From: Candidatus Micrarchaeota archaeon
GTDB taxonomy: Archaea > Micrarchaeota > Micrarchaeia > Anstonellales > Anstonellaceae
Length of the DNA: 46,096 bases
Direction of reading: 5' to 3'
Assembly: GCA_964650545.1 (NCBI GenBank)
Contig: CAZYTZ010000003.1
Location: 1 to 46,096 of the forward strand
Under the pieces are notes generated by a model. That model saw only the letters and a list, made by a program, of their open reading frames with translations. It was not told the origin of the DNA and made no database searches. Positions 1,947-39,288 of this stretch are shown here, one piece after another (the first letter of the stretch is position 1; each line of letters opens with the position of its first letter). Both the position numbers and the translations under genes were made by a program.

Positions 1947-2870
1947 GTGAGAGTGCTGCTGCAGTTCCCGGAAGGCCTCAAGCAGGAGGCGCTGCAGCAT
2001 GCCGCACGCCTCTCCTCGCAGGGGCACGAAGTGTTCCTTTCAGCATCAGCCTGCTATGGCGCGTGCGACCTGGCTCTTGACGAGGCGCGCCACATAAAGG
2101 CGCAAAAACTCATCCATTATGGGCATGCGGAATTCTCGCGCGTGCGCGCGCAGGGCCTGAAGGTAGAATACATTCCCTACTTTGCAGTGCTTGACTGGAA
2201 GGCAACAGGCGCCATGCTGAAAAAAGCAGCCGCGCTTCTCCACGAATCAGGCGCAAAAAAGCTCGCCCTTGTTTTCCCAGTGCAGCACGTGCGCAACGCA
2301 AGCAGGGTGAAGGAGCATTTGAAGTCAGAAGGCTTTTCGGTATTGATTGGCAAGGGCGGCAGCCACGCTGCGCACGCTGGGCAGGTGCTTGGCTGCGACG
2401 GAAGCGCTGCCTTCTCGGGCAAGGCGCGCAGCGCAGACACCGTAGTCTACTTTGGCGGCGGCAAATTCCACCCCACAGGCATTTCCGCAGGAAAGCCAGT
2501 ATTGTGCGCAGACCCGCACCTTCAGGACGCTTATTGGATAACTGATGAAATCGCAAAGCAGGAAAAGCGCAAGAACGGCGCGCTTTTGGCAGCCTCGCAG
2601 GCGCGCACATTCGGCATCCTCCTCTCAACAAAGAACGGCCAGCTCAACCTTCCCGGCGCAAGGCTTGCAAAAAAGCTTCTGGAAAAGAAAGGCAGGCGCG
2701 CGGAAATACTGGTGGCAAACGAATTCTCCCCGCTCGCGCTTGCAAACTTCCTGAAGTTCGGCGCCTACATAAACACCGCCTGCCCGCGCATTTCCGACGA
2801 CCGCGAGGCATTTGGCAAGCCGGTTGTGAATGTGGCTGACATAAAGCGGCTGCTTGAGATAATGGTGTGA
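1947..2870 (+). CDS. dph2: Diphthamide biosynthesis protein Dph2
   Basis: LQFPEGLK, GACDL, QVLGCD, TACPR (three Fe-S cysteines). Confidence 0.92.
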   Translation: MRVLLQFPEGLKQEALQHAARLSSQGHEVFLSASACYGACDLALDEARHIKAQKLIHYGHAEFSRVRAQGLKVEYIPYFAVLDWKATGAMLKKAAALLHESGAKKLALVFPVQHVRNASRVKEHLKSEGFSVLIGKGGSHAAHAGQVLGCDGSAAFSGKARSADTVVYFGGGKFHPTGISAGKPVLCADPHLQDAYWITDEIAKQEKRKNGALLAASQARTFGILLSTKNGQLNLPGARLAKKLLEKKGRRAEILVANEFSPLALANFLKFGAYINTACPRISDDREAFGKPVVNVADIKRLLEIMV

Positions 2871-2923
2871 CTGGGAAGATGAATTTAAATGTTATTACCA
2901 ATAGATTAATGCTGGTGGTTTAA

Positions 2924-3328
2924 ATGATGGTTTTCCAAGTAACATTCATTAACAAGAAGACTGTGCCAACAAAAACTGCAGTGGAAGCCACATCAACATC
3001 ACTGAAGAATGACATTGAGACGCTTTGCAGCTCGAAAAAAGCCGATGGCAGCGCATACAATAAAGTCCTACATACGCTTCTTGATGCCCTTAAAAACAGC
3101 AGCCGGGCTGATATGCAAGAGGTGCCCAAGCGGGCAAGGCTGGCTTATTGGACAATTGCCAATTTTGCGAGAACCGAGAAGCCCGACGAATACATAGCAA
3201 ACATAACGACCGGGGGGGCAGTCAGCGACAACAGGATTCGCTTCCGGGTGAACGGCGACAATACTTTCACTGCGCTTGCTTTGACTGAGATGGACTTTCA
3301 GGGAGGCGCAGTCAACAGGAAAAAGTAG
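2924..3328 (+). CDS. Hypothetical orphan protein
   Basis: 134-aa ORF filling the gap, AT-rich upstream region with GGTGG; no family recognised. Confidence 0.6.
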   Translation: MMVFQVTFINKKTVPTKTAVEATSTSLKNDIETLCSSKKADGSAYNKVLHTLLDALKNSSRADMQEVPKRARLAYWTIANFARTEKPDEYIANITTGGAVSDNRIRFRVNGDNTFTALALTEMDFQGGAVNRKK

Positions 3329-29148: not shown

Positions 29149-29418
29149 ATGATAACCGCGCAGAACCTGATGCTCCACGAGCTTATCGGGCTTCACGCAA
29201 AAGTGGCAGAGAGCACGTCTCGTCCCCACAAGGGACTGAGCGGGCTCGTAGTCGACGAAACCAAGAACACGCTGGTGCTTCGCACGGGGCAAGGGGAAAA
29301 GACGGTGCCGAAAAAAGGGCGCGTTTTCCTCTTCACGCTTCCAGGCGGAAAAAAGGCAAGGCTGGAAGGCGACAAAATCGCGTTCCGCCCCTATGACAGG
29401 CCGAAGAAACTGAGGTAA
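29149..29418 (+). CDS. rnp1: Ribonuclease P protein component 1 (Rpp29)
   Basis: HELIGL, G.VVDETKNTL, RP.DR; conserved operon position. Confidence 0.93.
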   Translation: MITAQNLMLHELIGLHAKVAESTSRPHKGLSGLVVDETKNTLVLRTGQGEKTVPKKGRVFLFTLPGGKKARLEGDKIAFRPYDRPKKLR

Positions 29419-35887: not shown

Positions 35888-35903
35888 ATTGATGGTGTTT
35901 CAC

Positions 35904-36356
35904 ATGGCAAACCGCAAAGGAAAAAGGAACCGCAAATTCAACGGAAGCCGCAACCACGGCAAGGGCAATACCAAGAACCGCCGAGGCAAGGGCGGCAAGG
36001 GCGGCTGGGGCCGTGCAGGCATGCACAAGCACCGATTCTCCTACATCACGCGCTATGAAAGGCACTGGATGCGCCACGGCGGCAGGCACGGATTTTCCAA
36101 CCAAAACGCAACCAAGGTCATGCCCACCATCAACCTCTACGAAATCGACCAGCTCGCGCGCGCAGGCAAAATCGAGACGCGCGAGGGCAAGCTTGCATTC
36201 GACTTTAAGGGCAAGGTGCTGGGCTCCGGCTCAATCACGGTGCCCATCACGGTGCGCGCACTTGCTTTCTCCGAAAAGGCAAAGGAAAAGCTCAAAGCCT
36301 GCGGCGGCAGCGCGGTAACGCCTGAGCCTAAAGCCGAGCCTGCGAAGGCAGAATGA
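35904..36356 (+). CDS. rpl15: 50S ribosomal protein L15 (uL15)
   Basis: GSRNHG.G..KNRRG.G.KGG.GRAG..KH, KVLGSG, FSEKAKEK. Confidence 0.95.
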   Translation: MANRKGKRNRKFNGSRNHGKGNTKNRRGKGGKGGWGRAGMHKHRFSYITRYERHWMRHGGRHGFSNQNATKVMPTINLYEIDQLARAGKIETREGKLAFDFKGKVLGSGSITVPITVRALAFSEKAKEKLKACGGSAVTPEPKAEPAKAE

Positions 36357-36379
36357 AAAAGTTGCCTGCAACTTTTTCA
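36354..36379. terminator. Near-perfect palindrome overlapping the rpl15 stop codon
   Basis: tgaaaaagttgc-ct-gcaactttttca (12-bp arms). Confidence 0.55.
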
Positions 36380-36467
36380 GCATTGGAACGAGCGCATGGC
36401 GATTTCCAATCCAATAAAAAGCCTTTTTAATGCGTCGCAGCAATTACACACAGTCCAATCAGAATGT

Positions 36468-36629
36468 GGGCCGGTAATGGCACCTGAACCTCGTTCAATT
36501 GCCAACGGAAGCTTAGCCTGGTTGGAGCGTTCGACTGATAGACTGTCGGTGGAAAGGGCGCAGGATGCGTCGAAACCCGCCGGTGGTTTCGACATCGAAA
36601 GGTCGAGAGTTCAAATCTCTTCCGGCCCA
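36468..36629 (+). tRNA. tRNA-Ile(GAU) with two introns: 36477-36510 (position 9/10) and 36541-36593 (37/38)
   Basis: Exons 36468-76, 36511-40, 36594-629 join into a 75-nt cloverleaf: GGGCCGG/CCGGCCC acceptor, GCTT/GAGC D stem, TTCGA-CTGATAA-TCGAA anticodon arm, GAGAG-TTCAAAT-CTCTT T arm; both introns form relaxed BHB motifs; CCA not encoded. Confidence 0.9.
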
Positions 36630-36733
36630 CTCATTTTTTCCAAAAGCCTTAATCTCTATGCAGGCTTTTTCCAACCATACCTTTTTAAACACATTATACA
36701 ACATAATAACACAGGCGAATATAGGCGATATGC

Positions 36734-37549
36734 ATGCACATTTACCCTGACATCATGGTTGCTAAGAGGGGTGCAATGCTTGCGGCAAAACAGGGCTTGC
36801 TTGCAACAGCCAACAAGTTCATAGGGTCGAAACTGCTTGAGGAAAAGATAGAAAGGGCTGGTGCCGAGCGCACCGACCTTAGGATAATGCGCCATCTGAA
36901 AAAGACCGTGAAACTCGCCAAAAAAATCGGCCTGGCAGGAAGGCTCGAGGACAAACATTCGATGGCCTATCTTAAGAGCAACAAAAGGTGGTCTCCGGAC
37001 ATTAGGTCGGAACGGCTCCGAAGCGGCAAGCTTCCAAATTACGGCATAGAAGACAATCTTCTCGAAATGCATCATCTTTACATGAAACTGGCCGATCATC
37101 ACGCAAAGCTTGCCGGGGGCAATGGCGGCACTTCTGGAAAGATCGAGCGCATCATTGCCGAGGCGTATTATTCTAAAGCAATTTCCACATCCAGGAAACT
37201 GATAGCTCAATACGGAAAGCATCTTAGTGCAGCATGCGACGAACTGAAAGCTGTGGCGGAAAAGTACCCGCGCACTCATCCTGTTTATGAAACGGCTTTG
37301 GGCTATCTTATGGGCGTTTATGACAGCATAACCTACTATGGGGTTGAAATGAACGAATTGGAGGGAACGATTGGAAACTTCAAAGGCAGCAGGGGGCTTT
37401 CACTTCTGAAAGAGAGCGTGATGAAGGAATACGCGGATGGGCTTCAAGAAAAAGCCTATGGGATATTCGGGCTGCCGTTTGTTCATTACCACTTTAGCGG
37501 CCCAAAATACCAAACTGTTTTTGCAAGTGGCGCGCTGCATGGAAACTAG
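36734..37549 (+). CDS. Hypothetical helical orphan protein downstream of the tRNA
   Basis: 271-aa ORF, basic N-terminus, atypical codon usage; start could be 36755. Confidence 0.65.
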   Translation: MHIYPDIMVAKRGAMLAAKQGLLATANKFIGSKLLEEKIERAGAERTDLRIMRHLKKTVKLAKKIGLAGRLEDKHSMAYLKSNKRWSPDIRSERLRSGKLPNYGIEDNLLEMHHLYMKLADHHAKLAGGNGGTSGKIERIIAEAYYSKAISTSRKLIAQYGKHLSAACDELKAVAEKYPRTHPVYETALGYLMGVYDSITYYGVEMNELEGTIGNFKGSRGLSLLKESVMKEYADGLQEKAYGIFGLPFVHYHFSGPKYQTVFASGALHGN

Positions 37550-37614
37550 ATTTTGAATAGCACTTCTTTTTCCAGTTCCGTCATCTTTATTTACCTTAAT
37601 CCCGTTTCCATCCC

Positions 37615-39288
37615 ATGAACATCCGTTTACTTGCGATTCTAACCCTTCTGCTCATCCTCCCTCTTGCATCCGCGCGCGATTATTCCATCACAAGCGCGCA
37701 GGTGGACTACTATCTCCATTCGGACGGCACAGTTGGCGTGCAGGAAAGGCTGACATACTCACTGTCCGGCAGCTTTCGCGAGCTTTACCTGCAAAAGCCA
37801 ATGGGCCTCTCCATCAGCAATGCGTCGGGCTATTGCGTGGGGCGGGAAAGCTGCACTTTTAGCATGCAGAACAACGAGGGCTACCAGGAGCTGGTGCTTG
37901 CGGACAGCTACAACTCAGGCACAGTGGCGGTGGTATTCGACTACACCCTTAACGGCGAAATACTGTCGCAAAAAGACACAGCGCAGTTCTTCTACAAGCT
38001 TTGGGGCGACACCTGGGAAAAAGAAGTAGGAACATTGAAGGCAAGCGTGCACCTTCCAGCGGGCATGTCTCCGACAGAATATTTCATCCACGCCCCTGCG
38101 GGCAGCCAGGAAATCACGACAGCCGACGGCATCTCCATAATCTCGCAGAACCACCCGGCAAAAACCTACCTGGAAGTGAACATGCTCCTTCCGCAATCAG
38201 GCTTTTCCGGCTTGCGCCAGGCGCCAAAATACCTCTTCAGCCAGGAAATAATCCAGGGCGAGAAGAATTATGCCGAGCAGCAGAAGTCAAACGAGCAGCT
38301 CATGGCACTGCTCTCGTACGCCGTCCTTATCTTCCCGCTTGCAGGCATTGCGCTTTTCATCTACTTGTACTACACGCACGGCCGCGAGCTGCCTCTTGAC
38401 TATGCAGGCACATACGAGCGCGAGCCGCCCTCTCCACTGACGCCATCCGAGGCAGGCTACCTTCTCACAAAAGGCATGCGCACTGACTTTGTCAGCGCGG
38501 AGATGCTATGGCTTTCGCACAAGGGCTACGTAAAACTCGAGGAGCGCGAGGTAATCGACGACCTGCTGATAATCAAGCGCAAGACAAAAGCATGGTTCAT
38601 CATCCTTCTCAAGAAGATGGACGAATGCATATCCCTTGCGCCCCACCAGCGAAAGCTTATGGGGTTCGTCTGGTCCATCGCGACAAACAACGAGCTTCGC
38701 CTCTCCTCCCTGCAGTCGCACAGGTACGCACTCAGAAAGTTCCTTGCCGCTTTTTCCAAGCAGCTCGATGACGGCTTTTACGCGCGCTTCATGGACAAGA
38801 AAGCCAACAACATCATGAACATTTACCTCGTTTTCTCTCTCTTCGTTTGCACCGTTTCCTTTGTCATGCTCGAGATCGGCATGGCACTGCTTTCCACGCT
38901 CGTCCTGGCAGCGCTGCTCATCCTCACAGCCGCCCAGCCCCAGATACTTGGCAGATGGACGCCTGAGGGCAGGCTGGCAGAGAAAAAATGGGCTGCCTTC
39001 AAGAAATACATGCAGGACTTTGGAAGGCTTCAGGAAAAGGAAGTCCCCTCGCTCATCCTCTGGGAAGAATACCTCATCTACGCAACCGCGTTCGGAATCG
39101 CATCAGAGGTGATAAAATCCCTCAAGGTGCGCTTCCCATCAGAGCAGGCCAAAAACGCCGCTTTCATAGGAAGCTACGCAGCATTCCACTCATCGTTCTC
39201 GTCCGTGGCAGCCGCATCCGGCGGCAGCAGCGGAGGCGGGTTTGGCGGCGGTGGCGGAGGAGGGGGCGGCGGAGGCGGCGCCAGATAG
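37615..39288 (+). CDS. DUF2207 family membrane protein
   Basis: Signal peptide, DGT..V.E.LTY, WE.YLIYATAFG and Gly-rich GGGFGGGGGG tail. Confidence 0.88.
   Translation: MNIRLLAILTLLLILPLASARDYSITSAQVDYYLHSDGTVGVQERLTYSLSGSFRELYLQKPMGLSISNASGYCVGRESCTFSMQNNEGYQELVLADSYNSGTVAVVFDYTLNGEILSQKDTAQFFYKLWGDTWEKEVGTLKASVHLPAGMSPTEYFIHAPAGSQEITTADGISIISQNHPAKTYLEVNMLLPQSGFSGLRQAPKYLFSQEIIQGEKNYAEQQKSNEQLMALLSYAVLIFPLAGIALFIYLYYTHGRELPLDYAGTYEREPPSPLTPSEAGYLLTKGMRTDFVSAEMLWLSHKGYVKLEEREVIDDLLIIKRKTKAWFIILLKKMDECISLAPHQRKLMGFVWSIATNNELRLSSLQSHRYALRKFLAAFSKQLDDGFYARFMDKKANNIMNIYLVFSLFVCTVSFVMLEIGMALLSTLVLAALLILTAAQPQILGRWTPEGRLAEKKWAAFKKYMQDFGRLQEKEVPSLILWEEYLIYATAFGIASEVIKSLKVRFPSEQAKNAAFIGSYAAFHSSFSSVAAASGGSSGGGFGGGGGGGGGGGGAR

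Follow-up and report, generated by a model that had tools for sequence, protein, structure and literature searches.

How does a tRNA gene whose first nine nucleotides are separated from the remainder by an insertion give rise to a tRNA? The question is raised by a locus in a 46-kb stretch of the genome of a Candidatus Micrarchaeota archaeon, and the whole of this analysed stretch is called the window below. By sequence reading we find one tRNA-Ile(GAU) gene at 36468–36629 on the forward strand, with three exons of 9, 30 and 36 nt. It has two introns, one of 34 nt between tRNA positions 9 and 10 and one of 53 nt at the canonical position 37/38. We consider it very probable that this is a functional gene whose first intron is spliced by proteins at 9/10 and whose second is spliced at 37/38. 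The elements of the locus are as follows.

36424–36431, forward strand: TATA-like box TTTTTAAT, read from sequence and preceded by an A-rich stretch.
36454–36462, forward strand: leader 'clamp' element UCCAAUCAG, complementary to exon 2 bases 36518–36526.
36468–36476, forward strand: exon 1, GGGCCGGTA, tRNA positions 1–9 (5' acceptor strand, U8 and A9).
36477–36510, forward strand: intron 1, 34 nt, foldable into a hairpin and closing with the tail ACGGAA, set between tRNA positions 9 and 10.
36511–36540, forward strand: exon 2, opening with GCTTAG, tRNA positions 10–37 (D-arm, 5' anticodon stem, anticodon GAU and A37).
36541–36593, forward strand: intron 2, 53 nt, at the canonical 37/38 position, reported by ARAGORN after removal of intron 1.
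36594–36629, forward strand: exon 3, tRNA positions 38–73 (3' anticodon stem, variable loop, T-arm, 3' acceptor strand and discriminator A).
36634–36639, forward strand: run of six T, read from sequence, 3' of the gene.

A sequence-only reading of this DNA had proposed the 9-nt 5' exon and the hairpin of the 34-nt insert, and both are confirmed. Exon 1 is GGGCCGGTA at the coordinates listed. In intron 1 a stem of TGGCA (36478–36482) and TGCCA (36500–36504) surrounds an inner hairpin of TGAAC (36485–36489) and GTTCA (36493–36497), and the ACGGAA tail follows at 36505–36510. The end coordinate of that reading, 36540, is the end of exon 2 (A37) and not of the gene, with intron 2 and exon 3 following. 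Exon 2 carries CUGAUA after the 5' anticodon stem, and its bases 36512–36514 are the partners of G1–G3 in the outer helix of the splice motif described below. Exon 3 carries the strand complementary to GGGCCGG, and CCA is not encoded. The D-arm (36511–36529) has a U13·G22 wobble and a G at position 21, where A is usual, and both features occur in all seven orthologues. U12 and U13 of this arm also form both G·U pairs of the outer splice helix.

The TATA-like box TTTTTAAT ends 36 nt before tRNA position 1 and is a putative archaeal promoter of the tRNA gene; a comparable box at comparable spacing is present in three related loci (L003, L004 and L005). The T-run at 36634–36639 is a likely archaeal transcription stop. 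A scan for sigma-70 promoters and hairpin terminators gave no sites, and such a scan is inapplicable to archaea. Two open frames without a Pfam match lie at 36396–36824 (forward strand, 142 aa) and 36656–37279 (reverse strand, 207 aa). The first of these crosses the tRNA gene and could be taken for a hypothetical protein wherever automatic annotation overlooks the tRNA.

A long archaeal ribosomal-protein operon reaches its end here, and the tRNA gene is found 111 nt 3' of L15. In the stretch 35889–39288 of the window the last operon genes are L30 and L15, and then come the tRNA gene, a 271-aa ORF without a family match and a gene for a DUF2207 membrane protein. The L15 protein was scanned against species-representative genomes, and 80 loci were returned. 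The best matches are Candidatus Micrarchaeia/Micrarchaeota MAGs at 80–85% identity, none of them identical. The gene order L15, tRNA-Ile, DUF2207 is common to the window, L002, L005 and L010.

Exons 2 and 3 are present at 100% identity in six of the 80 loci (L001–L005 and L010), and all 75 exon bases are identical in the seven genes made up of the window's and those of the six relatives. In L001 and L010 exon 1 is fused directly to the GCTTAG of exon 2. L002–L005 contain an insert of 33–35 nt at the exact insertion point seen in the window. The L004 insert (34 nt) has one base different from the window's and the L005 version is 33 nt long, while L002 and L003 have a clearly diverged 35-nt insert. 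All five inserts end in ACGGAA, with the last six bases invariant (5/5) compared with 11 of the 28 other positions; as the five interrupted genes share descent, 5/5 does not amount to five independent events. Seven neighbouring ribosomal proteins are 49–85% identical between the window and these relatives. With exons identical at such divergence, the exons are strongly constrained and the insert is free to change. Three pairs of the intron 1 hairpin are changed on both sides across the five genes, and in the five-sequence alignment 93.8% of hairpin cells are paired, against 7.5–46.8% when the partners are slid. The outer and central helices of the splice motif never vary, being made with fixed exon bases, and hence provide no covariation support.

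The comparison of intron-bearing genes with empty sites is the strongest evidence that an intron would be removed precisely at 9/10, a position equivalent to 8/9 by sequence alone. The core of the sequence-only reading, a bulge-helix-bulge (BHB) intron at 9/10 of a Micrarchaeota tRNA-Ile(GAU), is thus supported by the empty sites of L001 and L010 and by the inserts of L002–L005.

These data bear on two readings in which no intron is removed. In the first, the 34-nt insertion has inactivated the gene, the BHB is fortuitous, and tRNA-Ile(GAU) comes from another locus. The window covers 46 kb of the genome, which leaves room for a second intact gene; the central helix contains a mismatch, and relaxed motifs are reported to be common by chance (preprint 10.64898/2026.10.13.758758). 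However, the 75 exon bases are identical in all five insert-bearing genes although their ribosomal proteins differ by 15–50%, and the insert, though variable, has preserved its hairpin and tail. The T-run and the promoter-like box persist as well, and the locus is syntenic between L15 and DUF2207. We consider a pseudogene very unlikely. In the second reading the insert stays in place, and the mature tRNA has an extra hairpin arm between positions 9 and 10. The fold predicted for the leaderless transcript does keep four tRNA arms plus the hairpin, but two close relatives lack the insert and have identical exons, and a splice motif, but not an extra arm, accounts for the leader element and for the invariance of the ACGGAA tail. 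Positions 8–10 of tRNA belong to its tertiary core, which also counts against a retained arm. This outcome seems to us extremely improbable.

Both introns were searched with blastn-short against the 80 loci, and no sign of a repeated mobile element was found. The matches were the orthologous L004 copy and stretches of 13–14 nt with E values of 0.08–0.6. A target-site duplication was considered, in which ACGGAA would be a decayed copy of CCGGTA (4/6 match). The match is confounded, as the tail has in any case to pair with the palindromic CCGG, and the idea is speculation.

The sequence-only reading had warned that tRNA finders may miss or truncate this gene, and they do both. ARAGORN reports no tRNA genes in the whole window. 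When the 34 nt are deleted in silico it calls tRNA-Ile(gat) with a 53-nt anticodon-loop intron, and when both inserts are deleted its output is an ordinary cloverleaf of 75 nt. The Rfam tRNA model has a single match in the window at 36506–36624, which scores 29.7 bits against a threshold of 29, spans model positions 5–66 only, and pairs the CGG of the intron 1 tail with the 3' acceptor strand. At E values up to 10 this tRNA match is the sole Rfam match in the whole window. Among the relatives, ARAGORN finds tRNA-Ile in both uninterrupted genes (L001 and L010), and in none of the five interrupted ones when the window is included. Rfam scores are 54.7–55.2 bits over the full length for the two intronless genes, compared with 29.7–31.7 bits and a partial match (model positions 5–66) for all five interrupted genes. 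Since tRNA-Ile(GAU) is essential, genomes of this clade would be scored as lacking an essential gene; 'incomplete' tRNA sets are described as a known problem in DPANN archaea (PMC5829648). tRNAscan-SE 2.0 extends its candidates by 60 nt to catch introns near the gene ends (PMC8450103).

We also looked for further hidden interrupted tRNAs in the window and 30 Micrarchaeota loci by scanning for a T-arm with an acceptor complement, a scan that needs a standard T-loop and U8 and can miss others. Its 14 matches are the seven tRNA-Ile genes and other tRNA genes that are contiguous or have a 37/38 intron; these others, most of them also called by ARAGORN, show no insert near the 5' end. In three more distant Micrarchaeota loci, ARAGORN calls tRNA-Ser or tRNA-Pro genes with anticodon-loop introns of 39–56 nt (L013 17784–17908, L014 17056–17197 and L024 19640–19776). 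In L027 it calls a tRNA-Glu(ttc) with a 567-nt 'intron' at 2534–3201 on the reverse strand, which may be an artefact or a large insertion.

The splice junctions of intron 1 were scored with the geometry known from solved endonuclease-RNA complexes, in which two 3-nt bulges are set four helix steps apart and each is cut between its second and third base (PMC12397907). In the 9/10 register three of four central pairs form in all five genes (C4-G, C5-G and G6-C, with a G7·A mismatch), and the bulges are TA|A and AA|G. The outer helix consists of G3-C11, G2·U12 and G1·U13, with an additional U(-1)-A14 pair in the window. Across the five genes it has 3–4 bp, and the intron-side helix has 3–6 bp. 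All parts of the motif named in the sequence-only reading are present, namely the outer GGG/CTT, the central CCGG/ACGG with 3/4 pairs, and the two bulges. The cut that it placed after the second bulge base agrees with the ARMAN-2 endonuclease-RNA complex, where the 2'-OH of bulge nucleotide 14 is described as attacking the phosphate of nucleotide 15 (PMC12397907).

The junctions of intron 1 therefore fit a relaxed BHB in all five genes in the 9/10 register only, and the strict hBHBh' motif (the α4, α'2 substrate) in none of them, as each has G7·A. Chance formation was gauged in two ways: of 5000 dinucleotide-shuffled inserts, 36 have three or more central pairs together with three or more in the intron-side helix, and the insert moved to other tRNA positions reaches this threshold at 3 of 62. 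Relaxed motifs as such are said to be common by chance (preprint 10.64898/2026.10.13.758758). With both flanking helices and the exact boundary demanded, as here, the chance rate is about 1–5% by these nulls.

Could the intron instead lie at 8/9? Exon 1 and the intron both end in A, and this one-base ambiguity is present in all five genes, so that the two registers give an identical mature sequence. However, the 8/9 register forms none of the four central pairs in any of the five genes. We rejected this register, and an intron there has a very low probability.

Intron 2 likewise departs from a perfect motif in some genes. In the window its central helix has three of four pairs, the five pairs of the anticodon stem serve as outer helix, and the helix on the intron side is 11 bp long. 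All four central pairs are present in five of the seven 37/38 introns, and three of four in the window and L005. With three of four central pairs also at intron 1 in all five genes, relaxed motifs are the norm at this locus. This fits, by analogy, an endonuclease like that of ARMAN-2, a member of the same phylum whose broad-specificity enzyme is described as accepting relaxed motifs (PMC3239211). The 37/38 introns of the orthologues are 31–39 nt long. By inspection the introns at this position are of three types, found in L003, L004 and L010 (34 nt), in L001 and L002 (39 nt), and in the window (53 nt) and L005 (31 nt), where TTTCGAC is the end of both. Such a grouping agrees neither with the ribosomal-protein tree nor with the types of intron 1, and it points to a mosaic or recombinant gene.

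The BHB of intron 1 and the acceptor stem use the same bases, and in fold predictions the two are mutually exclusive. The sequence-only reading went further and held that the acceptor stem cannot form before the intron is removed. The mutual exclusion stands, but the statement is too strong: when the leader is left out, the lowest-energy fold of all five unspliced transcripts forms the acceptor stem, with the intron as a side hairpin. Forcing the splicing motif on these leaderless transcripts costs 12.8–13.7 kcal/mol. The cost is 2.4–4.2 kcal/mol before the 3' acceptor strand has been transcribed.

The leader contains an element that may change this balance. UCCAAUCAG (36454–36462) can pair with CUGGUUGGA in the D-loop part of exon 2 (36518–36526), giving 9 bp at -13.5 kcal/mol; nine of 1000 leader shuffles reach an energy as low, and the UCCAAUCAG 9-mer occurs once in the window. 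The leader-exon 2 duplex is present in all five interrupted genes, with 8–9 bp and -10.4 to -13.5 kcal/mol (5–32 of 1000 shuffles as low), and in L004 one A-U pair has turned into G·U. The two intronless genes lack it; their energies are -7.4 kcal/mol, a value reached by 265 of 1000 shuffles, and -4.0 kcal/mol, reached by 783 of 1000. With 15–16 nt of leader added, the splicing-competent fold lies 2.4–5.5 kcal/mol above the lowest in the five genes (2.4 in the window), and in four of the five it is still not predicted to be the lowest-energy fold. The clamp would be in the RNA only if transcription starts at or before about 36453, where the start is estimated from the position of the TATA-like box. 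As RNase P would strip off the part of the clamp that lies in the leader, the clamp favours splicing before RNase P. The sequence-only reading had already implied this order without noting the leader pairing, which makes it more plausible, though it is unproven.

The clamp might also be irrelevant to a genuine splicing event. RNase P and tRNase Z would then act first on a cloverleaf-like fold with the intron hairpin protruding, and a broad endonuclease would capture a transient or very relaxed motif. This course would suit the leaderless folds, where the full acceptor stem is present in the lowest-energy structure of all five transcripts, and the folds with leader, where the acceptor-stem form is still preferred by 3.3–5.5 kcal/mol in four of the five genes. 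G1–G3 would remain free for the outer helix after removal of the leader, and endonucleases of this phylum are described as accepting relaxed motifs (PMC3239211). However, the leaderless motif carries the cost of 12.8–13.7 kcal/mol given above. Moreover, a leader element found in five of five interrupted and none of two uninterrupted genes is hard to explain if idle, though shared descent could yield the same pattern. We regard splicing without a role for the clamp as unlikely.

Our preferred reading is that the clamp takes part in splicing. From the observed gene structure, insertion point, conservation and pairing potential, we infer the following cleavage, ligation and order of events. In the primary transcript the 5' acceptor strand would not be paired with its 3' partner. 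G1–G3 would instead pair with C11–U13 of exon 2, and C4–G6 with the CGG of the intron tail, while the third helix would be the intron's own hairpin. With this arrangement U8-A9|N and A-A|G10 would each come to lie in a 3-nt bulge, the two bulges being separated by four helix steps. The leader would pair with the D-loop part of exon 2 and clamp a rod-like fold, in which the order is leader:D-loop helix, outer helix, bulge, central helix, bulge and intron hairpin. The splicing endonuclease would cut after the second base of each bulge, and an RNA ligase would join A9 to G10. The acceptor and D stems would form after ligation, and RNase P would then take off the leader. Intron 2 would be excised at an ordinary anticodon-arm motif.

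Two other kinds of interrupted gene were considered and rejected. In a split or permuted tRNA gene the pieces have separate transcripts or a permuted order, but here the exons are collinear within 162 nt and the 34-nt insert is too short for a promoter. A self-splicing group I or group II intron requires a ribozyme core of hundreds of nucleotides, compared with inserts of 34 and 53 nt, and Rfam identifies only the tRNA.

The distribution of intron 1 does not follow the history of the genomes that contain it. A maximum-likelihood tree was built from the seven concatenated ribosomal proteins. The seven tRNA-Ile genomes group together (100/100), in the order window, L001, L010, L002, (L003, L004, L005). 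The data reject as clades the five intron-bearing genomes (p-AU 7e-6), the carriers of the window-type intron (window, L004 and L005; p-AU 4e-59), L002 with L003 (p-AU 0.003) and the two empty-site genomes (p-AU 0.0004), where the tested groupings were defined by intron type and a quick tree had been seen before the tests. The conflict between intron presence and the ribosomal-protein tree implies at least two gains, losses or transfers. Precise loss, repeated gain, and exchange of segments by recombination across the identical exons would each fit. By inspection of the seven genes, the leader type goes with the intron 1 type.

A more ambitious interpretation, which we put forward tentatively and think less likely to be right than wrong, is that intron 1 and the clamp form a co-inherited cassette that both enforces splicing before RNase P and moves between Micrarchaeia lineages by recombination across the conserved exons. 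The order would be obligatory because RNase P removes the sequence that holds the splicing fold. Transfer between lineages would produce a mosaic of three 5' haplotypes (two intron types and the empty site) and three 37/38 types, none of which follows the species tree. If this is true, the locus captures, in nature, tRNA introns in the course of being gained, lost and exchanged.

Non-canonical tRNA introns, several introns per gene and relaxed motifs are described as established in Crenarchaeota, Nanoarchaeota and ARMAN-2 (PMC4090602, PMC3239211). The positions given in the text of one review are 3/4, 20/21, 22/23, 25/26, 29/30, 30/31, 45/46, 53/54, 56/57, 59/60, 'etc.' (PMC4090602). We found no mention of a tRNA intron at 9/10 in literature text, where position maps sit in figures and supplements, and the present one may be the first described at the junction of the acceptor stem and D stem. 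The closest system is that of Candidatus Micrarchaeum acidiphilum (ARMAN-2, with an ε2 enzyme), from the same phylum, with several introns per gene, relaxed motifs, and both 37/38 and non-canonical positions (PMC3239211; PMC12397907). The non-canonical positions in the ARMAN-2 main text, however, are 53/54 and 59/60 in the T-loop (PMC3239211), whereas the intron described here is at the acceptor/D-stem junction after a 9-nt first exon. Its motif, unlike those of the ARMAN-2 introns, uses the 5' acceptor strand together with leader pairing. The 3/4 intron of Thermoproteales (Sugahara 2008, as cited in PMC4090602) resembles it in being near the 5' end and in having a motif that excludes the acceptor stem, but belongs to another phylum and another position.

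The D-arm introns of Asgard archaea that tRNAscan-SE misses are likewise reported as short inserts within the 5' third of a tRNA; they have BHB-like boundaries and are gained and lost among close relatives (preprint 10.64898/2026.10.13.758758). D-stem and D-loop introns of the red alga Cyanidioschyzon merolae are similarly short, overlooked, gained and lost, with BHB-like boundaries (PMC3728597). In contrast to the intron 1 insertion, both of these sets are mostly inside the D stem or D loop, and their lineages differ. A further parallel is found in split and permuted tRNAs of Nanoarchaeum equitans, Thermofilum pendens and C. merolae, in which sequence outside the mature tRNA is described as stabilising the splicing substrate (PMC4090602). 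There, the leader and trailer pair beside the splice motif, whereas in the gene studied here there is one contiguous transcript whose leader pairs with an exon, in its D-loop region.

The leader element that can pair with the D-loop part of exon 2 is new in this analysis. Besides this element, the locus is notable for a first exon of only 9 nt, for a motif that ties up the acceptor strand, and for a series of intron-present and intron-absent genes in close relatives. Non-canonical tRNA introns have been known in Micrarchaeota since 2011, and the present case is thus an increment and not a surprise, a real but modest addition. Seven close relatives with identical exons, in which the site is empty or holds an intron of one of two diverged types and the clamp leader accompanies interrupted genes only, make a compact and testable system. 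It lends itself to studying how the splicing endonuclease is offered introns whose sites upset the folding of the tRNA, and how such introns are gained and lost.

An intron with a relaxed motif would call for a broad-specificity endonuclease in the host, of the ε2, (αβ)2 or loop-bearing α4 type. Among the 64 window ORFs scanned, no splicing endonuclease family match was found in the 46 kb, and none matches SecY. A gene for the RNase P/MRP p29 subunit lies within the ribosomal-protein operon at 29149–29418 on the forward strand, and the organism therefore has a protein-assisted archaeal RNase P.

In two of the relatives, the gap between L15 and the tRNA gene contains an additional ORF. That of L003 (10479–11327, forward strand) encodes 282 aa, and that of L002 (10544–11347, forward strand) encodes 267 aa with a LAGLIDADG_3 domain (E 8e-8, 32.8 bits). 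We considered whether the same upstream insertion had occurred in both, and rejected this as the two ORFs differ in translation though the intron 1 type is common to them. The L002 LAGLIDADG ORF extends at its 3' end across the leader and exon 1 into the beginning of intron 1, and the ORF may be a free-standing gene, homing-endonuclease-like, beside a locus of allele exchange.
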